This document shows positions 19,786 to 61,997 of a stretch of DNA of 64,000 nt, in pieces. The notes under the pieces were generated by a model. That model saw only the letters and a list, made by a program, of their open reading frames with translations, had not been told where the DNA came from and searched no databases. The position numbers were made by a program, and so were the translations under genes. The stretch lies in the IMG/VR virus record IMGVR_UViG_3300020050_009836, positions 19,861 through 83,860 of that record; one strand, written 5' to 3'. Source of the DNA: a virus. Taxonomy: Duplodnaviria > Caudoviricetes. Within the stretch, counting starts at the first letter, position 1, and every line of letters begins with the position of its first letter.

Positions 19786-20061
19786 ATGCTCTATCAGACG
19801 TACCGAAGAAATATGCGTGGTCAAGGCTTCCATAAAATGCTTTATCACAAAGCCGACATATGCCACTACATGTGCATGTGTATCAACTGTGGAAAGACTG
19901 TCACCATAACTGTCAACGGCTTTGATGAAGTCTACGATGACCCAAAGGTACTCAATGTACTCAAAGAAGTATGCCCTAAGACAAAAATTAAGGGTTGGAC
20001 TCGAACACAACTAAAAGAAAAAGTAGAGTTGACAAAGTCCGTAGAATCAAGTAACATGTAG
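19786..20061 (+). CDS. hypothetical protein, Cys-containing (start uncertain)
   Basis: First ORF of the plus-strand operon; C..C motif. Confidence 0.45.
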   Translation: MLYQTYRRNMRGQGFHKMLYHKADICHYMCMCINCGKTVTITVNGFDEVYDDPKVLNVLKEVCPKTKIKGWTRTQLKEKVELTKSVESSNM

Positions 20062-20063
20062 TT

Positions 20064-45937: not shown

Positions 45938-46192
45938 CTAGATACTGCGATAGGCTGCGACAGCTCGCTGCATAGGCTCCAAGTACTCACAGCGGACCAT
46001 GAAAGCTTGCATTTTGAGTGATGCAATTTCGTTTGGCGTTTGTGCATCACGGATACCATCTATCATGATTTCCAGTGCATGCAGCGCATCGGACAAATCA
46101 GAGCTTGGCACAGCATGCATGCGAGCGATAACGGATGCAACGGAGTCGGAGGACGTGTCTACGGAGTCCCAACCGTGTGTAGTGTTTTCCAT
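45938..46192 (-). CDS. leaderless MENTT protein
   Basis: TTGACA-17-TAAGAT-6 nt-ATGGAAAACACTAC. Confidence 0.85.
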   Translation of the reverse strand: MENTTHGWDSVDTSSDSVASVIARMHAVPSSDLSDALHALEIMIDGIRDAQTPNEIASLKMQAFMVRCEYLEPMQRAVAAYRSI

Positions 46193-46366
46193 GTCTATAT
46201 CTTATGCCATAAATGGGAGAATGTCAACAACTATTTTGCATTTACGTGAAATAGTTTTGTTGCATAATCAAACAACTGGCAGCGGCAGGATAGACGGGTA
46301 GTCATGAGTCCTGCTAGTAGGCAAGAAAAGAGCCGGTATTTCTACCGGCTTGACTAGGATAGGTTT

Positions 46367-46597
46367 CTACTTGAAACCTATCCGTTTCCTCCACGTTGGG
46401 GCATTTCTCGGCTCTGAGCGGTACCGCAGCTCTGCATTGCAGTAGTGCATTTCGTCGGAGTAGTAACCGGTATTACTATTCCACGGTTGGAGCTCGATTA
46501 CTTGCTGGCAATCAGCGATTATGTAATTGAGCGAGTGATTCGACAGTGTAGCCGCGTACCGCTGGTACTCGGAATGTTGCATGTGTTTGGTTCCCAT
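46367..46597 (-). CDS. leaderless MGTK cassette protein
   Basis: TTGCAA-17-TAAATT-6 nt-ATGGGAACC. Confidence 0.8.
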   Translation of the reverse strand: MGTKHMQHSEYQRYAATLSNHSLNYIIADCQQVIELQPWNSNTGYYSDEMHYCNAELRYRSEPRNAPTWRKRIGFK

Positions 46598-46763
46598 GCA
46601 TCTAATTTACCATCACTTTGTATACGTTGCAAATGTATTTTGTTGTTAGAGAATAACTATTGAATATGCAACTATCTGTAGAAGAGTGGCAGGACTGCTG
46701 AGTAGGTGTACAGCCTGTCGCTAGGCAAAAGAAAACTCGGATTTCTCCGAGTTAGTTCACTAA

Positions 46764-47018
46764 TCAATAAGTTATGTAAACTGATGTGTGGTGAATGTTG
46801 TCCATCAAAACGCACTCATCCATTACCGTGATGCACCAGCGGTGATGTTCAAATGTCATAAAGTGAGTCCGCTCACCGGTCTTACGGTACCGATTAATAG
46901 CCGTGGTCGCTTTTGTTTCGTATACCTTTGCATATTCCGGCTTGCTACCCGGCAATTCGTCAATGTAAATTTCGTACGTTGGATGCTTGATGCTCACTAG
47001 TGTTGCGATTGTTTTCAT
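46764..47018 (-). CDS. cassette protein, GGAACC leader
   Basis: AGGGAACCAAT-ATG. Confidence 0.8.
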   Translation of the reverse strand: MKTIATLVSIKHPTYEIYIDELPGSKPEYAKVYETKATTAINRYRKTGERTHFMTFEHHRWCITVMDECVLMDNIHHTSVYITY

Positions 47019-47303
47019 ATTGGTTCCCTCACCTAAATATTACCATAGTTTGTATACGTGCACACTATTATTCACTCAATTTCAAAACTATTTTTCAGCG
47101 AGATTTAGGCAGGACAATCAGCCTACTGCCAAGCCTGTCGATGTGACCAGCAGTCACGTGTGACTCAGCGTCACGTTGGTGACTATCAGTCACGGTGACC
47201 AGCCATCACTATGTGAATATGCCCTATACAGGTGGTCTGTGTGGCACCCCCCCCCTCCCCCTGAGCTGGAAAAAGGAAAGCCGGGATTTCTCCCGGCTGG
47301 TGA

Positions 47304-47504
47304 CTACGCTTCGTTGCACGTTGCGCAGTCGTTGCAGATATCTTCATCTGCTATCCAATCATCCTCCCAAACCCAGTCACCGCACTGTGTGCACTGCATG
47401 GTGCTAGGCTCCGCACCGTAGCAATCATCATCCATATCACCCGTCATCATCTCAGCATCCAGCCACGGTGCGATATTCGATTCCAACATCCATTCTTCGT
47501 CCAT
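47304..47504 (-). CDS. acidic Zn-ribbon-like cassette protein
   Basis: CTQC...C..C..C; AGGGAACC leader. Confidence 0.8.
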   Translation of the reverse strand: MDEEWMLESNIAPWLDAEMMTGDMDDDCYGAEPSTMQCTQCGDWVWEDDWIADEDICNDCATCNEA

Positions 47505-47679
47505 TTGGTTCCCTCTTTCCTACACTATTAATATATCATTGCACGTAGACAATGTCAAGAAAATAGACAAAGTATTTTAGTTGCATAATCAACAAACAAC
47601 GGGAATGGCAGGAATGTCGATAGGTATAGCAGCCTGTGATAAAGCAAAAGATAGCCGGGATTTCTCCCGGCTTGAGTTA

Positions 47680-47961
47680 TTAGAAGGGTAAAACCTCCTC
47701 ATCCAACTGCATGAAGATGTCGGCTTCACAGATTTGTAGCACCGGCTCAGTGCACCATGGACGCTCAATAACCACGTCCACTCTAAAGTCAGAGTAATCT
47801 GCCGAGTGCTTTCCAATGACACTTTGAAGCATTTGCTTCGCTAGTACCATTTTGAAATTACGGGTCACTTCGTCCTCAATGTTGAAGCGAAGGGAAACGA
47901 GCGACTCAAGCCGTTCGTCACCACGACCGACGAAGTCGAAATGAAGTGTAGTGTTTTCCAT
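47680..47961 (-). CDS. leaderless MENTT protein
   Basis: TAAGAT-6 nt-ATG. Confidence 0.85.
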   Translation of the reverse strand: MENTTLHFDFVGRGDERLESLVSLRFNIEDEVTRNFKMVLAKQMLQSVIGKHSADYSDFRVDVVIERPWCTEPVLQICEADIFMQLDEEVLPF

Positions 47962-48099
47962 GTCTATATCTTATCACACTTTGTCAATACTGCAAGAACT
48001 ATTTTATGCAAGGGTGAGGCTTGGCAGGAGTAGCACCGAGCATGACAGCCTGTCATGAGACATAAAAAGAGCCGGTATTTCTACCGGCTGGTGGATGTC

Positions 48100-48429
48100 C
48101 TAGACTGCGAGTCCAAGACATCCGATAACGGCTCCCGTGGAGTCCCGTACGAGTCCGTGTGGACTCACAAGGTCGATTCTATGTGAAGCGGCTGCTTTCA
48201 CGAGTCCCGACACAATATACCGAGTCCCCTTGATTGGTTCAGGAAGTCCGGTGATATCACCGTATGCTACACCGAATACGGGGATTTTCCCGTTCACAAG
48301 TGCAGTCTGCACCTCTTGGGTTTCGACACGTGCCACACGCCCATTTGCTGGGAATGTGTGGATGATATTGCCATTTGGCGATACCACACGGATTGCGTGT
48401 GGAGTGAGATTGATAAAGCGAGTCTGCAT
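48100..48429 (-). CDS. conserved phage protein (NLTPH motif)
   Basis: INLTPH..G.VARV..GLP.P...IVS..V; GGAGGGGAACC leader. Confidence 0.8.
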   Translation of the reverse strand: MQTRFINLTPHAIRVVSPNGNIIHTFPANGRVARVETQEVQTALVNGKIPVFGVAYGDITGLPEPIKGTRYIVSGLVKAAASHRIDLVSPHGLVRDSTGAVIGCLGLAV

Positions 48430-48633
48430 GGTTCCCCTCCGAAGTGGATTAGGTTGTTTCCTATCCACACACTAATAATACCATACCTATTGACAATGTC
48501 AAGCGATATTGCAAACTATTTCGTATTTTGTTGTTTGATTATTCAAATAGATGTAAGGCTTGGCAGGACTAACACCTAGTATGGCAGCCTGTCATGAGGC
48601 ATAAAAAGAGCCGGGATTTCTCCCGGCTTTCGC

Positions 48634-48867
48634 CTATTCACCGTAGTGGAAGATACACAGACACTCAGCACATATGCTAACTTCTTCGGTTCGTACCACT
48701 TCACCGGTGTAATCGTGCTTGTGTAGTACACAGTCGTACACATCGTTCCCTAATCCATCGTTGCAACAATCGCAACCCAATCGGCGGAATGAGCGTTCTT
48801 CGCTGCCGGTCATCGTGACATTAGCACCGGACAATTCGAGCGAGTCTAGAAATTCTTCCCAAGTCAT
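48634..48867 (-). CDS. Cys-rich cassette protein (paralogue of 45528..45755)
   Basis: Colinear with and highly similar to its paralogue. Confidence 0.85.
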   Translation of the reverse strand: MTWEEFLDSLELSGANVTMTGSEERSFRRLGCDCCNDGLGNDVYDCVLHKHDYTGEVVRTEEVSICAECLCIFHYGE

Positions 48868-49009
48868 TTTCGTGGTTCCCTTTATAGCACTTGGCTACAC
48901 TAGAATAATACCATACTGGTAGACAAAGTCAAGAAGTATTTAGTTATTAGATAATAGTTGAATCCGCAACGACAGGAGTTGCTACCACTCAGTAGTCCTG
49001 CCATCCGGC

Positions 49010-49168
49010 TCAATCCTCCTTTCCTTTGTGCTTTGCTTTCCGGCTGTACTCACGTTTGTTGTCATACGTCATCGATTTCTGCCACGGGCGGTCACTAGCC
49101 GGTATCCGTGATTTCACGGCTGTACGGGCATTCTGGAGCTCTGTGGAGGTAAGTTTAATTGTTTTCAT
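49010..49168 (-). CDS. 52-aa basic peptide, ArfA-like C-terminus
   Basis: Manual translation ends YDNKREYSRKAKHKGKED; AAGGGAACC leader. Confidence 0.65.
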   Translation of the reverse strand: MKTIKLTSTELQNARTAVKSRIPASDRPWQKSMTYDNKREYSRKAKHKGKED

Positions 49169-49219
49169 TTGGTTCCCTTTCAAAGATAGAGCCGGTATCT
49201 CTACCGGCTCATTGAGTGA

Positions 49220-49444
49220 CTAATCTATGTTGATGTTTCCGTGCTTGACACAGAGTGCATCGTAGATTTCCTGACCGTTTTCAGTGAGTGATTCATACCC
49301 TCTGTGAAGTGGTGAGATGCGAAACTGCATCCGTTGCAACCTACCGAATACACGGTAGATAGGGCAATTGACACCACCGTGCCAATCACAAGCGAACGTG
49401 TAATACGCTTCGCAGATATCAAACCGGTTCCATTCTGTCATCAT
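49220..49444 (-). CDS. cassette protein
   Basis: RFDICEAYY..WHGG motif; AGGGAACC leader. Confidence 0.8.
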   Translation of the reverse strand: MMTEWNRFDICEAYYTFACDWHGGVNCPIYRVFGRLQRMQFRISPLHRGYESLTENGQEIYDALCVKHGNINID

Positions 49445-49625
49445 AACTTGGTTCCCTCTTTCCTACATCAACAATATACATTGACACGGTTACAATGTCA
49501 AGAAGTATTTAGTTATTAGGTAATAGTTGAATCCGCAACGACAGGACTTACTACTCAGTATCGAGCCTGTCATCAGGCAAAGGGAAAGCCGGGATTTCTC
49601 CCGGCTTTCATTCTAGGGAACCAAC

Positions 49626-49790
49626 CTAGAAAATCCTAGGGATTAAGGTTCCAACGTAGATTAGTAGCACAGCGACTCCGAGATACGCTCTGTCCTTGCG
49701 ATGCATCGCTGCAAACAACAAAGCCAACAAACCGATTCCAGATATCCCGGTGAACGATACTAACCTTGACAAATCTTCTATGATTATCAT
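49626..49790 (-). CDS. 54-aa membrane peptide
   Basis: Manual translation, 2 hydrophobic segments, own promoter. Confidence 0.7.
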   Translation of the reverse strand: MIIIEDLSRLVSFTGISGIGLLALLFAAMHRKDRAYLGVAVLLIYVGTLIPRIF

Positions 49791-49919
49791 TTTTCCCCTA
49801 TCCCTTCCTACACTATAATAATACCACGTATATTGACAAAGTCAAGGGAATATACAAACTATTTTCAGCCTATCTATCCTGTCATCCAGACAAAAAAAGA
49901 GAGCCTTTCGGCTCTCCTC

Positions 49920-50129
49920 CTACTTTGTTGGCTTCACCTCCACAGCGGTAAATTTTTGCTCTAAGACATCCATTAGTTGACCAACAGCGTTATCAAATTC
50001 AGCGAACGCCGTGCGAAGTGCAGAATCCTTTGGCTCTAACTTACGGTAGATTTGCCATGCCGTCTCACACGCCTCATTGACGTGAGTGAAAAGCCGTTGC
50101 TCGTTTGTTGTTGGTGTAGTGTTTTCCAT
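49920..50129 (-). CDS. leaderless MENTT protein
   Basis: TAAGAT-6 nt-ATG. Confidence 0.85.
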   Translation of the reverse strand: MENTTPTTNEQRLFTHVNEACETAWQIYRKLEPKDSALRTAFAEFDNAVGQLMDVLEQKFTAVEVKPTK

Positions 50130-50258
50130 GCCTATATCTTATCAGACTTTGTCAATAATGCAAGAGAATATACGAACTATTTTCAGAATGCATAAGCAGC
50201 AGGAGTCGCTACCTACTAGTAGTCCTGCTAGTAGGCATAAAAAAAGAGCCTTTCGGCT

Positions 50259-50486
50259 CTACTCTGCACTTGCCTCCTCCTCTTTCAACTTTGTGAGCGT
50301 GTCATTAAACAGCTCACGGTCTATCACGTTCATCAAAGCGCCAAGTGCACTTTCATACGCCGTGTAGCATAGTTGCACCGTATCGGACTTATCCTTGGCT
50401 TTCATGTATGCCATAAAAGGTGCGTGGCTGCTTTCACACAACGCTTTGTACAACGCTCCCAATTCCGCTCTTTGTTGTTCTGTCAT
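50259..50486 (-). CDS. cassette protein, GGAACC leader
   Basis: Complete cassette. Confidence 0.8.
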   Translation of the reverse strand: MTEQQRAELGALYKALCESSHAPFMAYMKAKDKSDTVQLCYTAYESALGALMNVIDRELFNDTLTKLKEEEASAE

Positions 50487-50663
50487 TTCGGTTCCCTATC
50501 CCTTTCCTACACTAATAATATACCATGCCACGTATACAATGTCAAGTAAATAGATGAACTATTTTAGTTGCATAATCAACTATCTTCACCGGGACGGCAG
50601 GATGGGATACCTATAGTGGAGCCTGTCGTAAGGCATAAAAAAAGGAGCCTTTCGGCTCCTCCT

Positions 50664-50870
50664 CTACATCGCTCTTACTTTATCTACCCACTCTGCTACC
50701 TGAGCGAATGAAAGGTGCCCGTGCACATCATTTAGGATTTCTCCATTGTGCATCACAGCGATTTCGAAAAGTCCGGTTTCCGCACCGTACGATACTCCCG
50801 GTTTGCAGATGATGGATATCGTGTATCCATTTGGGAAAGTGATTTTGTTGTCGTAGTAAGTTTGTGTCAT
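50664..50870 (-). CDS. cassette protein, long GTAGG..AGGGAACC leader
   Basis: Complete cassette. Confidence 0.8.
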   Translation of the reverse strand: MTQTYYDNKITFPNGYTISIICKPGVSYGAETGLFEIAVMHNGEILNDVHGHLSFAQVAEWVDKVRAM

Positions 50871-51046
50871 TTCGGTTCCCTTTATAGGCTAGGCTTGCTT
50901 CCTTCCTACACCTATATATTACCATACTAGTAGACAAAGTCAAGTAAATATACAAAGTATTTTTGTTGTTTATGCAACAAAGTACAGATGATGGCAGGAG
51001 CTACACCACGCATGGCAGCCTGTCACTAGGCAAAGAAAAAGGGAGC

Positions 51047-51181
51047 CTAAGCTCCCTTGGTCCTTATCGCCGCATCGAGTATCCGGCACACTTCCTTGTA
51101 CCGAGCCGTACTGGTCTTACAGTAGCATTCAAGGGATAGTTTTTCCCATGTAAGTGTTTTTATGATTTCGTCGATTTCCAT
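51047..51181 (-). CDS. 44-aa protein, second gene of a cassette
   Basis: SD AAGGGGG; follows a hairpin lacking a U-tract. Confidence 0.55.
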   Translation of the reverse strand: MEIDEIIKTLTWEKLSLECYCKTSTARYKEVCRILDAAIRTKGA

Positions 51182-51229
51182 CTGTTTCCCCCTTGTGAAG
51201 TGTAGCCGGGATTTCTCCCGGCTCACACC

Positions 51230-51490
51230 TTAGAAGCGACTGTAGTCTACTTTGAGGTTGCATGCGTCTTTGAACCTACCTTCAAAGTACTCGCCACGAC
51301 TGACGGTATTAGGGTCATTACTACTGAGCATTGCCATTATTGACATCTCAGCGATTGCCATAATGCTACCGAGTTTGTAACCGATGTGAACCGGCTCGCT
51401 TTCGACGGCTACGGCTACGGCTACGGTGGTGCTATCACTAGCGGTGTCTACGACGTCCCAGCCTACTGGGTTAGCGGTAGTGTTTTCCAT
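51230..51490 (-). CDS. leaderless MENTT protein
   Basis: TTGACT-16-TAATAT-6 nt-ATG; shares GWD.VDT.SDS with 45938..46192. Confidence 0.85.
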   Translation of the reverse strand: MENTTANPVGWDVVDTASDSTTVAVAVAVESEPVHIGYKLGSIMAIAEMSIMAMLSSNDPNTVSRGEYFEGRFKDACNLKVDYSRF

Positions 51491-51675
51491 ACACTAATAT
51501 TACCATACTAGTAGACAAAGTCAAGAAAATAGATGAACTATTTTTACTTGCATATGCAACGACCAACCTTAGCAGGAAAGTGAACCTAGGTACAGTCCTG
51601 CCACTGGGATGTGACTATCCGTCACCATGATGACTATCCGTCACGTATGTAGAACACAAAAAAAGCCTAGGCGTT

Positions 51676-51984
51676 CTACCTAGGCTTGCTCATTGCAGGT
51701 CGTCTGGGTTGCACCCCCCCTCTACGAGAGAGAGAGGTATTCCCGTGAGTGATTTGTCCGGTCTCTACCATTTCGTGAACATACTTTGCGATGTCACGTG
51801 CATCCCACTTGTAGAACCCAAAGTCGATATCGGATGTCACGCCTTCGGTATCAGCGTAGTAAATTTCCATAGTCTCATCCGCATCCATCACGAGAACGGA
51901 TGCATTATCACGCTCTGCGGACATATTGACGTAGTATTCGGTATAACCGAGACCGTCACGATTTGGAACCTTCACTGTTGGCAT
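51676..51984 (-). CDS. cassette protein
   Basis: The promoter lies inside the longer track ORF, so the start is revised to MPTVK. Confidence 0.7.
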   Translation of the reverse strand: MPTVKVPNRDGLGYTEYYVNMSAERDNASVLVMDADETMEIYYADTEGVTSDIDFGFYKWDARDIAKYVHEMVETGQITHGNTSLSRRGGVQPRRPAMSKPR

Positions 51985-52050
51985 TTCTTTGTACCCTTCC
52001 TTCACATATATATTACCATACTTTGTCAATGTGTCAAGGAAATATGTAAA

Positions 52051-52320
52051 CTATTTTTCAGGCGTCCGGTAGGCAGGGTCTATCATAGGCAGCCACTCCT
52101 GTTCAAGCCACTTCATGAGTTGCTTGTAATCCACTCCGGTATACACAGCTCTACCATCGGTGAACAAAGTGACCCTACGACGGTTCCTGTAAGGGTAGAG
52201 GCTAACTCCTACCGTCATTCCTAGGCTATACGCTAGGTTTACGAGCTTGGTGAACAAAGTCCCGTCATGCATGAAAAAGCCTCTAGATTCGGCATCTAGA
52301 GGCTTGTGGAGGCTATTCAA
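52051..52320 (-). CDS. cassette protein (second gene)
   Basis: Coupled to 52317..52700. Confidence 0.55.
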   Translation of the reverse strand: MNSLHKPLDAESRGFFMHDGTLFTKLVNLAYSLGMTVGVSLYPYRNRRRVTLFTDGRAVYTGVDYKQLMKWLEQEWLPMIDPAYRTPEK

Positions 52321-52700
52321 TACGATGGCCGGAAGATGCCAGCCGTTGCATTGGCGGTACCACGTGCATCGTGTTCGGCGTCAAGGTTTACCCTCCACTG
52401 TGCATCTTCGTATTCGCCTAAGATAGCACGGGACATTTTTGTCTGTCTGCCGATTCTGCCAGCAAACTCAAATTTGTCAAAGTAATTCGAGTCAATGAGT
52501 GAATCTACCGCTTCACCATCCACATAGATGGTAGGCACACACTCTGCATTCAATTCTGCATGAATGATGAAATAGTCATTTCGCTCATTGGAGTCATACT
52601 CAAATCCCTCTGGCTTTGGATACACGTTAAGGTATGCAAATACATAACCTTCAGTGAGTCCATCGATGATTACTTCCCGGCTCAAATAATAAAACTTCAT
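52317..52700 (-). CDS. cassette protein, GGAAGGGAACC leader
   Basis: Complete 5' module. Confidence 0.8.
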   Translation of the reverse strand: MKFYYLSREVIIDGLTEGYVFAYLNVYPKPEGFEYDSNERNDYFIIHAELNAECVPTIYVDGEAVDSLIDSNYFDKFEFAGRIGRQTKMSRAILGEYEDAQWRVNLDAEHDARGTANATAGIFRPSY

Positions 52701-52898
52701 ATCGGTTCCCTTCCTACATCAATAATATACACCATGCCGTTTACAATGTCAAGAAAATAGACAAACTATTTTTCAGTTGATTATGCAACTACAACGGAAG
52801 TGGCAGGAGTGACTCACAGTCACTAAGCCTGTCACAAGGCACAAAAAAGTGGATGGAAGCGATTCGCCGTGCTTCCATCCACTTATCGGGATAACGCT

Positions 52899-53129
52899 CT
52901 ATTCGAACGTTACGAAACCGACTACCAGCATGCCACTAGGCTTGATTACCAGCATGTCGCCGGTATTTTCCACGCGGCATCGGTGATTCGTCAAATCCAG
53001 CTCGGCTTTGACACGTCGCATGATTTGCGACTGAGTGGCATCGGATGCCATTTCAAACTCACCACGCTTCACCCAACTGTAGTTGGCTTGACCACCAAAC
53101 GTGTCCGTCAACTCAAATCGTACTGTCAT
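52899..53129 (-). CDS. cassette protein (TDTFGG.ANYSW motif)
   Basis: Long leader; terminator near 52846. Confidence 0.8.
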   Translation of the reverse strand: MTVRFELTDTFGGQANYSWVKRGEFEMASDATQSQIMRRVKAELDLTNHRCRVENTGDMLVIKPSGMLVVGFVTFE

Positions 53130-53324
53130 TTTGGTTCCCCTTGTAGATTAGGCTGATTCCTATCTACATCTACAATATACACCACCTAGTAGACAAAGTC
53201 AAGAAGTATTTAGTTATTAGGTAATATTTGAATATGCAACTACCTTTGACTTGATGGCAGGACTACCACTCAGTATGGCAGCCTGTAAGCCGGACAAAAA
53301 AAAGGAGCCTTTCGGCTCCTCCTC

Positions 53325-53582
53325 CTACCCTTCGTCTTCGTCTTCGATTTCGTTCGCTTCGTTTATCGCGGCGGCGATTTCTTCGAAGTCTACAGCACTG
53401 ATGTAGGTTTCAATGATGTCATTGTAGAGTGAACCCGCCTCCACTCCAGCCGGTGCCAAGTCACGCACCATATTTTCCACTTCATCTGCCGATACCTTGG
53501 AGTCTTCACCGATGAATACATCCATGATGTGGAGTGAACAGTTCCACGTTTCGTAGTTCGTCCAACCGTTGTAGTTGCTCAT
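53325..53582 (-). CDS. YNGWxNxxTW-motif phage protein (paralogue of 55817..56083)
   Basis: YNGWTNYETW. Confidence 0.85.
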   Translation of the reverse strand: MSNYNGWTNYETWNCSLHIMDVFIGEDSKVSADEVENMVRDLAPAGVEAGSLYNDIIETYISAVDFEEIAAAINEANEIEDEDEG

Positions 53583-53846
53583 TTTGGTTCCCTTAGTAGA
53601 TTAGGCTGTTTCCTACCTACACTATAATATTACAGCCTACGTAGACAAAGTGCAAGGTTTATTTTTAGCATTTACTTATTAGTTGTTTGTATTTGATTTA
53701 GCAACTAAATTTTGTTCACAGGATTGGCTAGAGGTCACAGCTCCTGTTACACTGAGTAGCCGGATGATACTCCAGTTGTCCGAGCATCATAACAACTACC
53801 GTTCCATGGAGAAAAGGAGCATCCTAGGATGCTCCTTTTTAGTTGT

Positions 53847-54116
53847 CTACTTGACTTCGTCGAAGGTTGAACGGATTACGCCGCCGTGGTTGTAGAGAAA
53901 CTTGCAGATGATGTGGAGGTTCGTAGCACTCCATCTATCCGCACGATTCATGGCATCCATTAGGTCATTTCTTAGCACTGCATCCAAGAAGCCACCAAGC
54001 ATCATCGTGGTGCGATATTGCACAAAGCCTTCGAAGGCTTGGATGTAAGATGCGATGCAAGCGTATTCATTACGAGTTTCTTCGCTGATGTTCAGCGGGT
54101 TGTTAGTGTTTTCCAT
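53847..54116 (-). CDS. leaderless MENTN protein
   Basis: TGG-TACTAT-5 nt-ATGGAAAACACT; start revised from the track. Confidence 0.8.
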   Translation of the reverse strand: MENTNNPLNISEETRNEYACIASYIQAFEGFVQYRTTMMLGGFLDAVLRNDLMDAMNRADRWSATNLHIICKFLYNHGGVIRSTFDEVK

Positions 54117-54342
54117 ACCTAATAGTACCATAGTTGACAAAGTATGCCAGCATTCTGGAACATTTATTTTCAAGCAGAAGTTGACAGGCTCGGAGCCTAC
54201 TCATAAGTCCTGCCAATGTGACTTCTGGTCACCATGATGGCTGTCCGTCACATCCATCAACAACAAAAAAGCCTAGGATTCCACCTAGGCTTTGCACAAT
54301 GCAAGGCGTGTGTCTTCGCCCCCCCTCCCCCCAACGGGGAGC

Positions 54343-54606
54343 CTACAGTTCAAGTACCGTGTAGGAATACTCCTCATTATTGTCAAGTCGCACGGTTAGC
54401 GACACATCGCCGTAGAGTGACCCTTCAAACATCGGGTCGTATGTCATGCCATACCGTGAGAGGTATTCGTGCACACATGCCTCAAGTTCCTCATTTGTGT
54501 TAGCGTCTACGGAACCGACAACCTTAAGTGGTTGACCGTATCCGATTTCGCCGGGAGTGCCTTCGAAGATTTCGATTACTAAGAATCGTGCTGTAGTGTT
54601 TTCCAT
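54343..54606 (-). CDS. leaderless MENTT protein
   Basis: TTGCAA-16-TAATAT-6 nt-ATG. Confidence 0.85.
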   Translation of the reverse strand: MENTTARFLVIEIFEGTPGEIGYGQPLKVVGSVDANTNEELEACVHEYLSRYGMTYDPMFEGSLYGDVSLTVRLDNNEEYSYTVLEL

Positions 54607-54744
54607 GACTATATATTACCATAGATTGTCAACATTGCAAGAACTATTTTAGTTAATTATTCACTGTACGGCGATAACAGGTTATTCAGTGAATAAGGCA
54701 GCCTGTAAGGAGGTAAAGAAAAAGGAGCCTTTCGGCTCCTCCTC

Positions 54745-55011
54745 CTATCCAATCACTTCGATAACTTGGTCCGAGTAGCACCAACGGAGTCCGCTAGTGT
54801 GTGGTCCATCAACGACCTTTATAGTGAACACAGCGAGCTGCTCAGCTAGATTCACCCTATTGACCTTCAAACCATCCTTGGCTCGCTGTTGGCCAGTGGC
54901 TTCGATTTCGATTACCACGGCACGGCGTTCCGGTTCCATACCGAAGCAACCACGCCACATGATGATGTCGCCGACTGTAATCGTTCGGCTCTGGGTAGTA
55001 GTGTTTTCCAT
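54745..55011 (-). CDS. leaderless MENTT protein
   Basis: TTGACA-17-TAATAT-6 nt-ATG. Confidence 0.85.
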   Translation of the reverse strand: MENTTTQSRTITVGDIIMWRGCFGMEPERRAVVIEIEATGQQRAKDGLKVNRVNLAEQLAVFTIKVVDGPHTSGLRWCYSDQVIEVIG

Positions 55012-55340
55012 GCCTATATATTAGCCCATAACAGACACATTGTCAATAGGCTTTAGTTGTTTTTGTAGATATATTTTCAGTCGGTTCAGGGACAGCTGTG
55101 GCAGCCTGTAGTAGTTCAGATAGAGAAAAAGGAGGTAGATTTCTCTACCTCCTCCTCCAGTCGGGAACCAACCGACAATCGTTCGCCGAGCTGCGATGCT
55201 CTAGGCTTATAAAGGTTATATCGTGTAGGCTCACATTTGCCAAATCTAGAGGCTAAAAGAGTGGATGCTAACTATGAGCGGGTTAGCATCCACTATCATC
55301 CCTATGGTAAACACCACGAAAACCATAGGGACATCAGATA

Positions 55341-55616
55341 CTAGCGTTTGGCTAGTAAGTCAGCGTATCCGACAATCATCGTGTCAAGATACGGGTCGTT
55401 GCAGACTTCATCCACGATGATATCGTTGGTGTTTTCTTGCACAGCGACTTCAAACCAGTGGCGAAGTGCAGAGATATGCACAGCGTTGAGGTCTTCGACG
55501 GCGGTATTCACCAAGTCGATACCCAACTCATTTTTGATGCACTCAAGGTGCGACTCCGTCAATGTCCCGTGCATCTGGAAGTTGATGCTAACGCTTCCCG
55601 TGATTGTGAACTCCAT
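55341..55616 (-). CDS. cassette protein with hybrid leader AGGGAACC-GAAAACACT-ATG
   Basis: Both initiation motifs occur in the 5' UTR. Confidence 0.8.
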   Translation of the reverse strand: MEFTITGSVSINFQMHGTLTESHLECIKNELGIDLVNTAVEDLNAVHISALRHWFEVAVQENTNDIIVDEVCNDPYLDTMIVGYADLLAKR

Positions 55617-55816
55617 AGTGTTTTCGGTTCCCTCTGTAGGCTAGGCTTCTTCCTTCCTACATCACTAATATATCCCATACTGTAGACAATGTCAAGAAAA
55701 TAGATGAAGTATTTTTAGTTGCATAGTCAACAAACAACATAGGCGGCAGGATGTGACTAGTGGTCACACAGCCTGTAGGTAGGCAAAAAAAGGAGGAGCC
55801 TCTCGGCTCCTCCTCA

Positions 55817-56083
55817 CTACTCCGCTTCCTCCTCTTCGCTCTTCTCCCGGTCGTCGTTGATGTGCTTGACGATTTCCCGCCAATCCACTTGCTCTAGGTG
55901 GTCGTTTATGAGCCACTGAGCGTAATCATTACCGGCGGTGCCTATCCACTCGGCTACGAGCTCTTCGGCGGTGTCCGGCTCCATATCGGCTCCGGCTTCA
56001 TTGGCGATGTCTAGGAGGCTCTCGCCGAAGTTCAGCGATACATGCCATGTGTCCCAGTTCTTCCATCCGTTGTATCCACTCAT
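55817..56083 (-). CDS. YNGWxNxxTW-motif phage protein
   Basis: YNGWKNWDTW; start revised to MSGY. Confidence 0.85.
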   Translation of the reverse strand: MSGYNGWKNWDTWHVSLNFGESLLDIANEAGADMEPDTAEELVAEWIGTAGNDYAQWLINDHLEQVDWREIVKHINDDREKSEEEEAE

Positions 56084-56286
56084 TGTCGGTTCCCTTAGTA
56101 GGCTAGGCTTGTTCCTTCCTACACTATTAATATACAGCATACGTTGACAATGTGCAAATGAATTACCAAAAATAAATAAAGAATGTTAGTTGACTAATCA
56201 ACGAGCTACGACGGCTTTACAGGCTGCCATAGTAAGCTGATATCCTGCCATCAGGCAAAGAAAAAGGAGCCTCTCGGCTCCTCCTC

Positions 56287-56502
56287 CTATAACCCTTCGT
56301 TGAACTCTTTGACTACTTGGTTAAAGAGTCTGTCGTTTGCTTCCGTGTACTTCCGGAACTCTTCACGTAGCTTGCGGATTAGTTCCGCCTTGCTTACTGT
56401 GTCGTCGAATTCAACGTCATTTACGACGTATGAAACATTGAATGCGTGGTGCGTTGCGACTGTTAGACGCTTTTGCGTGTAGTCGGTAGTAGTGTTTTCC
56501 AT
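56287..56502 (-). CDS. leaderless MENTT protein
   Basis: TTGACA-17-TAATAT-6 nt-ATG. Confidence 0.85.
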   Translation of the reverse strand: MENTTTDYTQKRLTVATHHAFNVSYVVNDVEFDDTVSKAELIRKLREEFRKYTEANDRLFNQVVKEFNEGL

Positions 56503-56545
56503 GTCTATATATTACCCTTACTTTGTCAATGTGTCAAGTCTTTTT

Positions 56546-56800
56546 TCAACTATTTTGAAAATAAGTCTCATAAATGTCTTTGTGACCCGTTGCCTTTTCG
56601 TACAAGTCATCCGACCGCTTTGTGTAGCGGTTCCATGTGGCGACAAGAGCGTCAAGCATCTCATCCCGTTGGATTTCCTTGTTTACGCTTGCTCTGCACA
56701 GCAAGAGGTACATTTCGCCTACGGCATCCACAGCGATGTTTTCACGCTCTGCTGTGTACTCTGCCATTGTCAACGGTTGGGTTTGTGTAGTGTTTTCCAT
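56546..56800 (-). CDS. leaderless MENTT protein
   Basis: TTGACA-17-TAAGAT-6 nt-ATG. Confidence 0.85.
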   Translation of the reverse strand: MENTTQTQPLTMAEYTAERENIAVDAVGEMYLLLCRASVNKEIQRDEMLDALVATWNRYTKRSDDLYEKATGHKDIYETYFQNS

Positions 56801-56970
56801 GTCTATATCTTACAGCACTTTGTATACTATGTCAAGGAGTTTTTGAAGTATTTTCAAAGCACTTTTAGCAGGAGCTGCTACCAGCATACTAACCTGCCAC
56901 AAGGAAAGCAAAAGAGCCGGTAGGCTGTAGACCTACCGGCTTTCTCTACCGTCGCACCACCGACGGATTC

Positions 56971-57300
56971 CTATATTTCCGTCGCTTGTAAACACTTTCG
57001 TGATGTGTCATTCAACTGAGCATCACCGTGGAAATGAGCCGGTTGTGAGCGTTGGATAGTCCATTTTTCAATGATACTAGACTTGATGTGCTTGACTTGA
57101 AAGTCGATAGCACGACCGTAATTCTTCTCCGACCAGTTCTGCAACACATAGCCGTTTTCGGATGCGTATTGACTAGCGTAGGTATCCATACGGGTATGCC
57201 ATGCTACGTCTACATCCATGACATCGATGATAAGAGGAGTCGGGTACGTGCTCGTTGTGAGCATGAAGACAACTTTCGTTGTGAGTGTAGTGTTTTCCAT
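56971..57300 (-). CDS. leaderless MENTT protein
   Basis: TTGACA-17-TAACAT-6 nt-ATG. Confidence 0.85.
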   Translation of the reverse strand: MENTTLTTKVVFMLTTSTYPTPLIIDVMDVDVAWHTRMDTYASQYASENGYVLQNWSEKNYGRAIDFQVKHIKSSIIEKWTIQRSQPAHFHGDAQLNDTSRKCLQATEI

Positions 57301-57503
57301 GACTATATGTTAGCCCATAAAATAGACTTTGTCAATAACTATTTCAACTATTTTTTACTTGCATAATCAACAACAAAAGAGTGTTAGCAGGATAGGTGAC
57401 GTACAGTCAAGCCTGTAAAGGTGGGATGTGACCCAGAGTCACCATGATGTCTGTCAGTCACATACCAGAGCAAAGAAAAAGCCGGGATTTCTCCCGGCTT
57501 GGA

Positions 57504-57767
57504 TTACATCCCCTTCTCTACAGCGAGCTCTAGAGCCTTCTCTGTGAGGTACCAGCCGTACTTTTTCATGTCTGGTTCGTAGCCGACTAGTCCAGCCTCT
57601 TGTGCGCCAGAGATAACACCGCCGGTCTTCTCGGCACTCCAGCCGGTCACCTCAGACACCATACACGCACCAAACCAAGAATGGTTGTCACCTTGAAGTT
57701 GCTCTGCCGTTTCGTACGGGCTATCGGCGATTACCACTTCTATCAAACGAGTCTGCAATTCAGTCAT
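57504..57767 (-). CDS. cassette protein (possible winged helix)
   Basis: Long leader; terminator near 57480. Confidence 0.8.
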   Translation of the reverse strand: MTELQTRLIEVVIADSPYETAEQLQGDNHSWFGACMVSEVTGWSAEKTGGVISGAQEAGLVGYEPDMKKYGWYLTEKALELAVEKGM

Positions 57768-58052
57768 TTTGGTTCCCTCAGTAGGCTAGGTCAGTTCCTT
57801 CCTACACATACATAATAAGGCATAGATTAGACTTTGTCAACAACTATTTTGACTATTTTTTGCACGTTTACCAGTGATAGGTATGGTGACGTTTGGTCAC
57901 GGGTATCTTTACAGGTTCGACTCCGATGTGACTATCCGTCACCATAGTGACTATCCGTCACGTCCAAAGCAAAAAGAAAACCACCAGACGTAGCCTAGTG
58001 GTTGCACAATGCAGGTACGAGTCTTTGCACCCCCCCCGCCCCCCGGCAGAGC

Positions 58053-58301
58053 CTACACCTCTTCGGTGTAAGCATCTACCTCTACAAGGATTTTGTCGAT
58101 GATGTATGCGGCTTGGAGAACGTTGACGGTGTGGTCACAGTCCGCTTCAAGCTGTGCAATGCACGGTCCACCTTCACGGTGGTTAGCAGAGCATCCATTA
58201 TGCCCCTCACAGCAAGGGTGAAACATGTACTCTGGTGCTTGCTCGTTGACGTGGAAGCGGATGTACTCGGCGGTACCGTAGGTAACTTGTGTAGTGTTCA
58301 T
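58053..58301 (-). CDS. leaderless MNTT protein, Cys/His-rich
   Basis: TTGACA-17-TAATAT-6 nt-ATG. Confidence 0.8.
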   Translation of the reverse strand: MNTTQVTYGTAEYIRFHVNEQAPEYMFHPCCEGHNGCSANHREGGPCIAQLEADCDHTVNVLQAAYIIDKILVEVDAYTEEV

Positions 58302-58452
58302 GCCTATATATTACAGCACATTGTCAACGTTGTCAAGTAGTATTTTGTTGTTTGTTTATGATGGATACAACTAGTCACGGAGAAGTATCACAGGATAGAT
58401 GAGTAGGTGTATGACCTGTAATCACCCAAAAAGAAAAGGAGCCTTTCGGCTC

Positions 58453-58929
58453 CTACTCAAACGCTGGCGTCTTGTACAACTCGTTGATTCGCATCCACCA
58501 GTCAAGGACTCGGAACGTCCACCACTGAGGGTCACAGATAGCCTTGAGGTCATCTGGCGCCTTGGTGCTGAAGTTGATTTGAGCCTTACGGGCTAGTAGG
58601 CTGCCTTCTTCAAGTTGGCTGTCGTGCACCGTGTTGTAGAACGCATTACGAAGGCTATCCTCTGAGTATGCGACGTCTACTAGCATCTGGCTGGCTACCG
58701 CGTAGTCGGTGACTCCAGAGTCCTTCTCAAGGGCGTCTACAGCCGTGTTGAACAGCTTCTGACCTAACTTGTGCATGTCAAACAAGACATCCTTGTTGGT
58801 TGCACCATCGATAAAGATTCCCTTGAGTGCGAGATAACTCAGCATTTCAAAGGCGTCGCTTTCGAAGGCGGCGAGCTCTGGATTTTCCATAGCCCATCTG
58901 AGTCGTGCATGCTTTTCTTGATTCGTCAT
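58453..58929 (-). CDS. hypothetical protein
   Basis: SD GGAGG; second gene of a cassette. Confidence 0.8.
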   Translation of the reverse strand: MTNQEKHARLRWAMENPELAAFESDAFEMLSYLALKGIFIDGATNKDVLFDMHKLGQKLFNTAVDALEKDSGVTDYAVASQMLVDVAYSEDSLRNAFYNTVHDSQLEEGSLLARKAQINFSTKAPDDLKAICDPQWWTFRVLDWWMRINELYKTPAFE

Positions 58930-59202
58930 TTAATTTTCCTCCTCCGAGATATTGATTGTTGCTACGAGTTCATTGAACTCCCAAGCGGGTGAACCCTTGG
59001 ATGCAACGTGGATACCGTTGCGGATGATAACGAACTCGATATCGTCATCTGACTCAAACCAAGAGTAGAACGCATCCTTGAACTCAATGAGTGAGTAGAA
59101 GTCTGGATTGTGTTGACCGTCAGAGATTCGCATCTGCTGTCCGAGTGCCCGCACGTGATTGTTCATCAAGCGGAGCGTGTCTAAGAGTTGATATTTGTTC
59201 AT
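58930..59202 (-). CDS. cassette protein, GGGAAGGGAACC leader
   Basis: Complete 5' module. Confidence 0.8.
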   Translation of the reverse strand: MNKYQLLDTLRLMNNHVRALGQQMRISDGQHNPDFYSLIEFKDAFYSWFESDDDIEFVIIRNGIHVASKGSPAWEFNELVATINISEEEN

Positions 59203-59263
59203 TGTGGTTCCCTTCCCTACACTACTATCTTACACTATACATGACAGTATGTCAACAACTATT

Positions 59264-59494
59264 TCAACTATTTTCCAGCACACGGAACATGATTTCTCCG
59301 TCCCATCCGTCGTGGAAAACGATTGTCAAGTCGTCTTCGTCTGGCGCACAGACGATATTGTCAACGTCACCGCCGACGTAGTTCCTCATCCAGAACTGTG
59401 CAAAGCGTGTCAGGCGCTCAGCATCCATACCCTCAGTGCGAGAGGTCAGTACCTCTGTCTCAATGTCCGTTCCCGATACTTCAACTTTTGTCAT
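59264..59494 (-). CDS. cassette protein, AAGGGAACC leader
   Basis: Own promoter. Confidence 0.8.
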   Translation of the reverse strand: MTKVEVSGTDIETEVLTSRTEGMDAERLTRFAQFWMRNYVGGDVDNIVCAPDEDDLTIVFHDGWDGEIMFRVLENS

Positions 59495-59550
59495 CGTGGT
59501 TCCCTTTCCTACACAACTATGTTACACTATACATCACACTTTGTCAAGTA

Positions 59551-59817
59551 CTATTTTAGAATAAATGTGACCTCAATAAGTTGAGGCACAGTCATCTCCC
59601 AGAGCATCCGCCCCTTGACGGTGTAGGAGCCATCCTTGACGGTGATACCGTCGAACTGGTACCCCTTGACGCTTGACGTGTATAGCAAGCTGCGGACGCT
59701 GTATACATCCACGAAATGCTTGATGTCGATAAGACTTTGTGGCGTCGAAGTCTTGAAGTTGATGATTTCGTACCGTGAGCGGTCTCTTGGTAGGTTGTCC
59801 AGTATCTTTGCACTCAT
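59551..59817 (-). CDS. cassette protein with a ~145-nt structured leader
   Basis: Promoter TTGACA-17-TAACAT at 59969-59997. Confidence 0.75.
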   Translation of the reverse strand: MSAKILDNLPRDRSRYEIINFKTSTPQSLIDIKHFVDVYSVRSLLYTSSVKGYQFDGITVKDGSYTVKGRMLWEMTVPQLIEVTFILK

Positions 59818-60204
59818 GTCGTTTCCCCTTGGATAAACTTACGGGAGAAAGGTTGTGTCAGTCTCCCATAAGGTTCGCATAAGAGATTGTGGATTTAACC
59901 ACTCCAAGGTTGCTACCCTTATTTGAACAACACAACTTGTTCTAGCCGTTCTGGTCTCTTACACCACTATGTTACACCATACATGCTACTTTGTCAACAA
60001 GTATTTCAACTATTTTCAAAGATGCTAGCTGGACTCTTACAGGAGGTGACTGTCAGTCACGTGAACAGTTGTTTGTTGCATAATCAACAATGTGACTTTC
60101 CGTCACACATGAAAAAAGGAGCCTCACGGCTCCCTATAAATATATGCACAATGCAGGTGCGAAAACTCCGCACCCCCCCCAGCGTGGAGGGAGCCTTACC
60201 CAGA

Positions 60205-60456
60205 CTATGGCTTGTAGTCTGGGTAGATGATGAGGTTGTACATCCCGTTGCGGCTATCAGAGTAGTACTGAAGTACATACCCAGCATCATGAAAGAATGT
60301 CAAAGCCGTCTCACGGGAAATGTCAATGTGATGATGACTCTCAGTGACACCGTTCGGCACAGCGAGCCTAACCATCAGGTCGTTCTCAACGATGAAGCGG
60401 TAGGCCTTGTGCCCGTAGAAGTACTCAATCTTGTGTGGGGTTGTAGTGTTTTCCAT
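60205..60456 (-). CDS. leaderless MENTT protein
   Basis: TTGACA-17-TATAGT-6 nt-ATG; start revised. Confidence 0.85.
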   Translation of the reverse strand: MENTTTPHKIEYFYGHKAYRFIVENDLMVRLAVPNGVTESHHHIDISRETALTFFHDAGYVLQYYSDSRNGMYNLIIYPDYKP

Positions 60457-60664
60457 GTACTCACTATACATCCTTACTGGTACTTTGTCAAGTACATTTG
60501 TAAATATATTCAGTAAGCAGCTTGGGAGTTTTACAGGAGGTGACTCTGGGTCACGTTACCAGCAGTCATCAGCCTTCTGTTGTTTGTTTATTTAATTGAA
60601 CAAGTGTTTTATTATTTGCACAATGCAGGTGCGGAATCTTGGCACCCCCCAGAAATGGAGGAGT

Positions 60665-60744
60665 AAAAAGGTGGACGGAAAACACTACTAAACCGTCCAC
60701 CAACCTAGGCTGGGAATGGGAAGGGGAAGGGAACCATCCTAGGC
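60665..60744 (-). ncRNA. candidate ~80-nt antisense small RNA
   Basis: Own promoter, no ORF, two hairpins and a U5 terminator; carries GGUUCCCUUCC and UAGUAGUGUUUUCC. Confidence 0.8.
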
Positions 60745-60750
60745 ATACTA

Positions 60751-60779
60751 AGTATAGCCATTCCCCACTCCCATGTCAA
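60751..60779 (-). promoter_or_regulatory. promoter of the candidate sRNA
   Basis: TTGACA-17-TATACT. Confidence 0.85.
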
Positions 60780-60985
60780 GCGCGCCTAGGCTTCCGTAAG
60801 CTCTTGTTAGGAGCTGCATAATCGTGTGAGGCGTCGTAAGAGTCAAGGAAGGATTCTATGAACTCATTCCTAAGGCTGCCATACACGCACTTCTCACCCT
60901 TGAAAACAAGGATTACTGGGTTCAGTGAGTTCAGCTCACTCACGATGGTAAGTCCAAGTGAGTGAGCCTTCTTCTCGGTTGTCAT
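60776..60985 (-). CDS. hypothetical protein
   Basis: ATGA coupling. Confidence 0.65.
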   Translation of the reverse strand: MTTEKKAHSLGLTIVSELNSLNPVILVFKGEKCVYGSLRNEFIESFLDSYDASHDYAAPNKSLRKPRRA

Positions 60986-61293
60986 TCTTTGACCTTTGGC
61001 GGGAAGTCGATTTGGATGGATATATCACGATGAGTGAAGTTCATCTCGTCGTAATCATCATACTCCCACAACTGACGGTGCGTTGCGTTGTCGCTGGTGA
61101 GCAACTTCAAGAAGTCGTCACGCATGATGTTACGCATCTCGTTGATGACCCACTCGTGATACTCACCGTGAGTAGCCTTCACCATAAAGTGCACCTTCAG
61201 AATGTTGCAGTGCTCCGGCTTGTGGTAGTGCTCGAAGATTTTCACTGCGTCGTCCTTCTTCAGCTTCGTCAATTTGACTTTAGTGTTTCCCAT
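60982..61293 (-). CDS. leaderless MGNT protein
   Basis: TTGACA-17-TATAGT-6 nt-ATG; start revised. Confidence 0.8.
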   Translation of the reverse strand: MGNTKVKLTKLKKDDAVKIFEHYHKPEHCNILKVHFMVKATHGEYHEWVINEMRNIMRDDFLKLLTSDNATHRQLWEYDDYDEMNFTHRDISIQIDFPPKVKE

Positions 61294-61572
61294 GTGTTCA
61301 CTATACATGGTACTAGGTAGTTTGTCAAGAACTTTGTGTAAATACTTTTCAAGAGCTGGAGGTCTTACAGGATGTGACGCTCAGTCACCATGATGACGCT
61401 CAGTCACGTAGTGGAGTACAGATTACGTTTCAGGCTCCACAAACTGTATGCCCATTGCAGGTGCGAAAACTTGCACCCCCCCCGCTGGCTGTTTAAACGC
61501 TAAATAATGGCATTTACGAAAATGGACGGAATTATAAGCAATTCCGTCCAAATGTAACCGTTTTTGTTGTTT

Positions 61573-61911
61573 TTAGTCAACATCTAATGGTTTTTCGACC
61601 ATTTTGTCCTTTAATTGACCAAAAAGTAGTGTGTCTGGGTCTGCTTCAGCCTCTGATTTAGCATCCTTCAAACCTAGTAGGATTTTCAAGGCATCGTTCC
61701 AGCCAACACTTACGAATGTGTCCTCCTCAGTCCAGTGGAGGATTTGGTTGTCTTCAAAGCGGAAACTCTCCTCCCAGCCGTCAGCGACGATAAAGGTAAC
61801 GAGTGTGCCACTAACAGTGAACTCTTTTATCTGCCCCGCACAGGCTAACTGATGCACAAGGAGCAAACCCTTCTCCTTAATCATGCTGTCGATGTATTCT
61901 TCGTACGTCAC
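61573..61911 (-). CDS. hypothetical protein
   Basis: GTG start overlaps the TGA of the 29-aa MENT ORF; terminator at 61519-61550. Confidence 0.75.
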   Translation of the reverse strand: MTYEEYIDSMIKEKGLLLVHQLACAGQIKEFTVSGTLVTFIVADGWEESFRFEDNQILHWTEEDTFVSVGWNDALKILLGLKDAKSEAEADPDTLLFGQLKDKMVEKPLDVD

Positions 61912-61997
61912 TTTACAATGACCCCCTTCTGAACGAACTCAATGAGGAACCGTTGCGCCCACTCTTCTGCTGTAAGACCGTCTATAGTGTTTTCCAT
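61908..61997 (-). CDS. 29-aa leaderless MENT peptide
   Basis: TTGACA-17-TATAGT-6 nt-ATG; MENTIDGLTAEEWAQRFLIEFVQKGVIVK. Confidence 0.7.
   Translation of the reverse strand: MENTIDGLTAEEWAQRFLIEFVQKGVIVK

Follow-up and report, generated by a model that had tools for sequence, protein, structure and literature searches.

A nucleotide-level tag at the start codons of predicted leaderless early mRNAs in a freshwater phage, and a candidate antisense RNA with a complementary loop

We analyzed the right-hand 64 kb (bases 19861-83860; hereafter, the window) of the 83,860-bp IMG/VR virus record IMGVR_UViG_3300020050_009836, which comes from an uncultured freshwater phage and is rated complete by CheckV. 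On the minus strand of the window, 14 promoter-proximal start codons are embedded in a common sequence, ATGGAAAACACTAC or a variant of it (hereafter, the tag), and the same region encodes a candidate small RNA with a terminator loop complementary to the tag. The interpretation that we prefer, with somewhat more confidence than doubt, is that the tag combines a leaderless translation start with the target site of a master antisense RNA.

At up to two mismatches, ATGGAAAACACTAC has 15 matches against 0.73 expected, a number that none of 100 shuffled sequences reached. The minus-strand starts comprise 10 exact copies and four variants, of which three are within two mismatches, whereas the fourteenth start, at 58301, reads ATGAACACTAC, with GAA deleted relative to the tag; all tagged features are on this strand. 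The promoters consist of a TTGACA-like −35 element, a spacer of 17 bp (16 bp in four units) and a −10 element of TAAGAT, TAATAT, TAACAT or TATAGT. The distance from the end of the −10 to the ATG is 6 nucleotides (nt) in 13 of the 14 units and 5 nt at 54116, so that the shared tag and the fixed −10 spacing that a previous sequence-only reading of the window had listed for these starts are both borne out. The six intervening bases are ATAGAC-like or GAAnAC. All 14 units start with ATG, and none has a Shine-Dalgarno (SD) site, the upstream sequence being just the promoter discriminator (ATAGAC-like). When the first 50 nt are folded, the minimum free energy (MFE) structure leaves the first 14-17 nt unpaired in most units, that is, the 5' end is predicted to be accessible.

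Open reading frames (ORFs) of 69-109 amino acids (aa) extend from 13 of the 14 tagged ATGs. The sequence-only reading had described the 14 products as unrelated proteins, which is correct for most pairs (alike in the first 5-6 residues only in an all-against-all BLASTP comparison) but not for the proteins from 46192 and 51490, which are paralogs over ~26 residues (E = 9e-6), nor for the protein from 50129, a distant paralog of the leadered gene at 50486 (E = 3e-5). The remaining start on its list, at 61997, does have the tag and the promoter, but the ORF there is only 29 codons long: it stops just past a G5 run, and a 112-aa GTG-initiated ORF (61911-61573) overlaps the stop in another frame. 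The same arrangement is present in the metagenome relatives L298 and L304 and, therefore, is not an assembly error; it could reflect translational coupling or a programmed frameshift. The tagged proteins, along with the conserved families of the AT-rich phages discussed below, yielded no Pfam matches, and comparison of the tagged proteins with PHROGs gave one weak match (E = 0.0034) to a family of unknown function and none below the default threshold.

The tag is almost certainly constrained at the level of nucleotides. We searched with ATGGARAAYACNAC, a degenerate pattern spanning 16 synonymous versions; the window phage contributed 10 sites and five other records a further 20, and a single version accounts for all 30, in agreement with the near-invariance of the codons noted previously. 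Hence, no synonymous variants occur among 30 MENT-coding starts from six phage records, whereas codon usage would yield the observed codon set in only ~12% of MENT starts (9% in the AT-rich phages). The codon for Thr4 is ACT in every copy in the window and that for Thr5 is ACA, ACT or ACC, which indicates that conservation ends at base 14. Comparison of 11 ortholog pairs with two relatives shows that the tag is 97% identical, compared to 79% for the 45 nt upstream and 83% for the 90 nt downstream, and in a 155-aa family represented in 15 contigs, the first 13 nt are kept down to 52% amino acid identity. Conservation of the amino acids with variation at synonymous sites, as could be expected of a peptide tag, was not observed.

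The tag core also occurs next to start codons outside the leaderless context and outside the reading frame. One copy in the window is located in the leader of an SD-type early gene (Table 1), the ortholog of this gene in the sister phage G001 likewise has the core just before the ATG, L022 has it in a short SD-type leader before the ATG, and in L115, in a region without a nearby promoter, it immediately precedes the ATG of a gene located after a terminator. In genes starting with MNENTT or MNKNTT, the tag is shifted by one codon, and in L262 it follows the SD-led ATG of an ortholog of a gene that is leaderless elsewhere. In these sequences, the tag accompanies the start codon and not the leaderless state, the promoter or the frame, which makes both a peptide tag and a DNA site bound at the promoter unlikely. 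Separately, we observed two orthologous 64-aa genes of which one, in L020 (~6550-6750, minus strand), is untagged and starts with ATGAACAAAGATAC (MNKDTK), and the other, in L022 (~12050-12240, minus strand), is tagged and starts with ATGAATAAAAACACTAC (MNKNTT), a difference showing that the tag can arise or decay via a few point changes.

A second early class, with ~15 promoters on the minus strand between 45755 and 59519 (e.g., 57812-57767, 53174-53129 and 48475-48429), provides a marker for the transcription start. In these leadered units, the −10 is followed by six bases, a leader that starts with GUAGGAAGG and often forms a 5'-terminal hairpin, the sequence (A/G)GGGAACC, and an ATG 3-6 nt further on. 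In seven leadered units, the 5' hairpin begins at exactly the seventh base after the −10, and the hairpin arms covary (GUAGG/CCUAC, GUAGAU/AUCUAC, GUGGAU/AUCCAC and GUAGC/GCUAC). Because they begin 7 nt past the −10, these hairpins mark position +1, the first transcribed base, for the promoter family, and under the same rule, transcription of the tagged units would start at the A of the ATG. The promoter geometry and the leadered-unit hairpins thus make it highly probable that the tagged mRNAs are leaderless.

Apart from the tagged starts, the only site on the transcribed minus strand with the tag complement is 60692-60675, in the candidate antisense RNA (Table 1). The promoter of this RNA is the best promoter match of the region; the transcript, of ~80 nt, contains no plausible ORF and is predicted to fold into two hairpins followed by a U-run (MFE −29.3 kcal/mol, z = −4.69, with none of 200 shuffled sequences as stable). 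The loop of the second, terminator hairpin carries the tag complement, and the C that closes this loop is able to pair with G+4 of the mRNA. Corrected for the folds of the individual RNAs, the net gain from cofolding has a mean of −8.1 kcal/mol across the 14 tagged 5' ends, compared to −0.9 kcal/mol with a shuffled tag core and −1.2 kcal/mol for 90 other ORF starts. In 14 of the 15 leadered units, loop 1 is complementary to 8-13 contiguous bases beside the ATG, against a background mode of 4. Given that loop 2 fits the tag and loop 1 fits the leaders, one RNA presents complements of both conserved start regions. A search of Rfam, including the C4 family, gave no match to this RNA at the gathering threshold, and only chance-level matches at E up to 10. 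As a side observation, the element GGGGGG(G)TGC...GCACCTGC directly follows the terminator of this RNA (60620-60650, minus strand) and occurs also in L303; it is repeated at ~61470, on the minus strand, after another non-coding promoter unit at 61558-61531.

The tag with the leaderless promoter was found in many IMG/VR contigs with 32-45% GC, including records of 92, 114, 166, 261, 316 and 358 kb, and the loop was present in all five sufficiently large tag-bearing records that we examined. The 14-nt loop occurs in G002 and G003 (two copies each), G004, G005, L115 and L252, always in a terminator hairpin but with a different stem sequence; altogether, it is found on differing stems in at least six phage lineages, with genomes of 82-358 kb. 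In a six-sequence alignment, 9 of the 10 stem pairs are changed on both sides and 98% of the cells are paired, whereas 13 of the 14 loop columns are invariant; none of 500 shuffles and no slid register comes close to this stem covariation. A pattern combining both loops had zero matches in IMG/VR. A metagenome scan identified nine contigs with the window phage's version of the RNA, in which the sequence is kept from +1 to the U-run, whereas the promoter spacer and the downstream flank have diverged; these copies always adjoin tagged arrays. The contig of G001 ends ~4 kb short of the antisense RNA locus, and in L297, a G001-like metagenome contig, the RNA is at the head of the tagged array. We also noticed, in L025, L027, L029 and L115, a second conserved hairpin, AAAAAATC-(3-4 nt)-GATTTTTT, just past the anti-tag terminator, which may be a bidirectional terminator.

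In the mechanism that we propose, the host sigma-70 polymerase would produce a monocistronic mRNA from each tagged early gene, with the position of the −10 setting the start at the A of the ATG, so that the mRNA would have neither a leader nor an SD site and, as the geometry suggests, ribosomes would load on the 5'-terminal AUG. The AUG is followed by 11 A/C-rich nt, GAAAACACUAC, which would stay unpaired whatever coding sequence comes after them. These nucleotides would also serve as a fixed RNA address for the 14-nt terminator-hairpin loop of the small RNA, which would be expressed from its own consensus promoter; another loop of this RNA is complementary to the GGAAGGGAACC ribosome-binding leaders found in the second early class. 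Pairing at +4 to +14 would cover the ribosome-loading site, and the most likely outcome is that translation of the whole tagged set would be switched off or limited together. Because the tag is kept as RNA and matches a hairpin loop, all the tagged genes are probably under the control of a single antisense RNA, and the necessity for one loop to stay matched would account for the frozen synonymous sites, for the end of conservation at nucleotide 14, and for the presence of the same tag on unrelated genes and in very different phages. We consider it likely that the pairing between tag and loop is functional; that it represses translation is a more even call. Both the portable leaderless-initiation module and the small RNA seed proposed in the sequence-only reading are supported at the level of sequence, the former by the invariant geometry and the leadered hairpins 7 nt after the −10, and the latter by the matching loop in the window phage and other tag-bearing phages and the compensatory changes in its stem.

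Several observations weigh against this mechanism. The core duplex between tag and loop is just 10-11 bp long. The promoter of the antisense RNA is of the same early kind as those of its targets, so that a simple early-to-late switch is not obvious; if it is a repressor, the RNA would act through its accumulation and not through being made late. In the AT-rich phages, the loop belongs to the terminators of protein-coding operons, where it may never exist as a free small RNA. In G002, G003 and G005, the first gene of such an operon is a leaderless AUGAACACUAC gene and the anti-tag terminator closes the operon, an arrangement that fits pairing within one molecule equally well; the two partners could pair in the same transcript, or a 3'-derived fragment could be released. 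In G004 and one other contig, copies of the same (MNTT) operon end in terminators that lack the loop. Finally, among the relatives we found only members with the same tag and none with an altered tag and a matching altered loop: tag and loop are invariant throughout the sample, and the stems alone covary.

The operons of G002, G003 and G005, together with the early-type promoter of the window RNA, are the evidence in favor of an alternative under which the pairing is real but positive or intramolecular, that is, it protects the leaderless mRNAs from 5'-end-dependent decay or closes the operon transcript 5' to 3', without repression. We regard this as unlikely, given that in G004 the hairpin and the tagged genes lie on opposite strands, 8-18 kb apart, that in the window phage a separate RNA faces 14 separate transcripts, and that a duplex at +4 to +14 would block ribosome loading on a 5'-terminal AUG.

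It is also improbable that the tag is merely a context-independent translation enhancer, A/C-rich and free of structure, with the complementary loops serving something else. Martin-Farmer and Janssen reportedly showed in 1999 that leaderless translation in E. coli is enhanced by CA-rich downstream sequences, which counts in favor of this possibility, as does the predicted unpaired state of the first 14-17 nt in most units. Furthermore, accessibility of the start codon is a main determinant of leaderless translation (PMC8459731). Accessibility, however, would permit many A/C-rich variants, whereas zero substitutions were found in at least 30 independent starts from phages with 32-45% GC, and the existence of an exactly complementary, invariant 14-nt loop would then be a coincidence of the order of 1e-5.

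A distinctly weaker possibility is that the promoter and the tag are the junction of mobile regulatory cassettes that, as in the PeSL cassettes, are kept alike by recombination (between cassettes or between co-infecting phages), with no sequence-specific function. The array does consist of promoter, ORFan and terminator units, unrelated genes, as well as phages of 82-358 kb, have the same module, and PeSLs mediate such shuffling (PMC2839356). Homogenization by recombination would be expected to leave the reverse of the observed pattern, in which the promoter spacers and flanks have diverged (0.1-0.7 bits) and positions +1 to +14 are fixed, and it leaves the complementary loop unexplained. Cassette exchange and targeting of the tag by an antisense RNA are not mutually exclusive.

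The position of the 14-mer directly at the predicted start of strong promoters would also fit a DNA element, either a phage repressor operator over +1 to +14 or an initially transcribed sequence that tunes promoter escape. This is very improbable: the copy at 55625-55616 is located ~45 nt downstream of the start site, beside the ATG, the L115 copy has no promoter nearby, and a DNA element would not explain why the complement falls precisely in the loop of an RNA hairpin whose stems covary. Least credible of all is MENTT as a peptide tag (a processing, targeting or degradation signal), which the sequence-only reading had rightly disfavored: coding copies are always in the N-T-T frame, but synonymous variants are absent, non-coding copies precede ATGs, the MENTN, MENTI, MGNTK and MNTT variants change the peptide yet keep the nucleotides, and the protein family searches gave only the single weak PHROG match.

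Antisense RNA control, to which the candidate system would belong, has precedents in phages. The c4 RNA is a small structured phage RNA with loops that pair with translation start sites of phage mRNA, holding back expression. The role of the c4 antisense RNA of P1 and P7 in the control of ant has been described (PMC8198154). Like c4, the CI RNA of P4 and the sar RNA of P22, the window RNA is phage-encoded and structured, with loops complementary, here by prediction, to translation starts of phage mRNAs. It is not homologous to any of these RNAs, given the absence of Rfam sequence or structure matches. In addition, c4 serves immunity in a temperate phage and has a single operon as its target, whereas the window RNA would face ~14 separate mRNAs and, via its other loop, a second class, in an early array of lytic type, with the coding 5' ends of leaderless mRNAs as targets. 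Bacterial small RNAs with C/U-rich anti-SD loops, such as Cuckoo/CcsR and AbcR, similarly offer a seed in hairpin loops to many mRNAs, and the C/U-rich loop 1 of the window RNA fits purine-rich ribosome-binding leaders in the same manner; unlike in those systems, loop 2 aims at a coding 5' tag rather than at an SD site, and the RNA is phage-encoded, with targets among the genes of the same phage.

The protein repressor RegA of phage T4 recognizes a short RNA motif over the start codon of many unrelated early mRNAs and shuts off their translation jointly. The logic of joint shut-off would be similar here, but the candidate regulator is an RNA loop; no match to the RegA family (PF01818) was detected in the 83.9-kb record. 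Leaderless mRNAs include that of lambda cI and are common in Actinobacteria, Deinococcus-Thermus and Caulobacter. Their attributes, namely, a 5'-terminal AUG, no SD site and an accessible start (PMC8459731), are those predicted for the tagged units. The tagged genes, although unrelated, additionally share an invariant 11-nt block after the AUG. To our knowledge, no fixed downstream sequence is common to the known leaderless mRNAs. The PeSL cassettes of T4-type phages are ORFan arrays with a strong sigma-70-like promoter, a terminator stem-loop and a shared repeated sequence (PMC2839356). The window array has the same combination of sigma-70-like promoter and terminator stem-loop between ORFan genes. 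PeSL cassettes, however, end in an SD site and a start codon (PMC2839356), whereas the tagged units have no leader and their conserved block extends 11 nt into the coding sequence; no antisense partner has been described for PeSLs. Our literature searches turned up no report of leaderless phage mRNAs with a common coding 5' tag to which an RNA loop corresponds.

If the antisense reading is correct, one short loop would govern a set of unrelated early genes via an address in their first codons, a compact and transferable form of post-transcriptional co-regulation and a natural example of strong selection on synonymous sites. The finding would bear on the use and regulation of leaderless translation beyond a few model organisms and would suggest a rule for uncultured phage genomes, namely, that a common 5' tag together with a complementary terminator loop denotes a regulon; it would also provide a module for leaderless expression that is portable and has an RNA off-switch built in. 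More speculatively, and in our estimate improbably, tag and anti-tag could form a private RNA addressing system across very different co-occurring freshwater phages of 82-358 kb, in which the anti-tag RNA built up by a resident phage, besides timing that phage's own early genes, would silence the tagged leaderless early mRNAs of later arrivals with the same tag. Such a system would amount to superinfection exclusion at the RNA level, or to competition among lytic phages, and would account for the identity of the 14 nt and of the loop in different lineages.

Table 1. Tagged units, tag core copy and antisense RNA features in the window (ATG position given in the unit name)
Feature	Position	Strand	Details
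M46192	45938..46227	−	promoter 46227-46199; tag 46192-46179; ORF 84 aa
M47961	47680..47996	−	−10 TAAGAT ends at 47968; tag 47961-47948; ORF 93 aa
M50129	49920..50165	−	−10 TAAGAT ends at 50136; tag 50129-50116; ORF 69 aa
M51490	51230..51524	−	promoter 51524-51497; tag 51490-51477; ORF 86 aa
M54116	53847..54150	−	−10 TACTAT, 5 nt before ATG; tag variant ending in A (MENTN); ORF 89 aa
M54606	54343..54642	−	−10 TAATAT ends at 54613; ORF 87 aa
M55011	54745..55046	−	promoter 55046-55018; ORF 88 aa
M56502	56287..56537	−	promoter 56537-56509; ORF 71 aa
M56800	56546..56835	−	promoter 56835-56807; ORF 84 aa
M57300	56971..57335	−	promoter 57335-57307; ORF 109 aa
M58301	58053..58336	−	promoter 58336-58308; shortened tag ATGAACACTAC (MNTT); ORF 82 aa
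M60456	60205..60491	−	promoter 60491-60463; −10 TATAGT; ORF 83 aa
M61293	60982..61328	−	promoter 61328-61300; tag variant ATGGGAAACACTAA (MGNTK); ORF 103 aa
M61997	61908..62032	−	promoter 62032-62004; tag ending in T (MENTI); ORF of only 29 codons
Tag core copy GAAAACACTA	55616..55625	−	in leader of SD-type early gene, ending in the A of its ATG
Candidate master antisense RNA	60664..60779	−	promoter TTGACA-17-TATACT 60779-60751; predicted +1 60744
Hairpin 1 of antisense RNA	60743-60703	−	28-nt loop holding GGUUCCCUUCC
Terminator stem of antisense RNA	60701-60693 / 60678-60670	−	followed by U-run
Anti-tag loop UUUAGUAGUGUUUU	60679..60692	−	complementary to mRNA +5..+14 (AAAACACUAC)

The tagged units belong to a minus-strand region that extends from ~44 kb to the right end and is dense in consensus sigma-70-type promoters and intrinsic terminators. 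Promoter-like sites number 61 (32 expected) and terminator-like sites 40 (14.5 expected), and almost all of them are on the minus strand. The units, each comprising a promoter, an ORFan and a terminator, are small and contain one gene each, an arrangement typical of a phage early region. Among the genes in the record are those for a portal protein, a major head protein, a large terminase and a primase/helicase-like protein. Comparison of the array with cultured phages by megablast gave no match, and the closest terminase among cultured phages is only ~41% identical, so that the phage has no close cultured relative. A host search with the tag and discriminator in 185,579 species genomes produced 94 matches, approximately the number expected by chance, with a promoter-like context in only 1-2. 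Among the late genes (G000, whole record), only ~11 of 28 long ORFs are preceded by a loose SD-like motif, which hints at a host with weak SD dependence.

Two further observations concern the surroundings of these units. GTGAC-N5-GTCAC inverted repeats, sometimes in tandem and with ATCATG in front, are present on the minus strand at ~51600, 54200, 57400, 60555 and 61400, between terminators and the next promoter, and could be protein-binding sites. At 20027-20828 on the plus strand, TTGACA-17-TAACAT is followed by six bases and the ATG of a 254-aa ORF that lacks the tag; this untagged leaderless candidate, which has no Pfam match, heads the terminase block.

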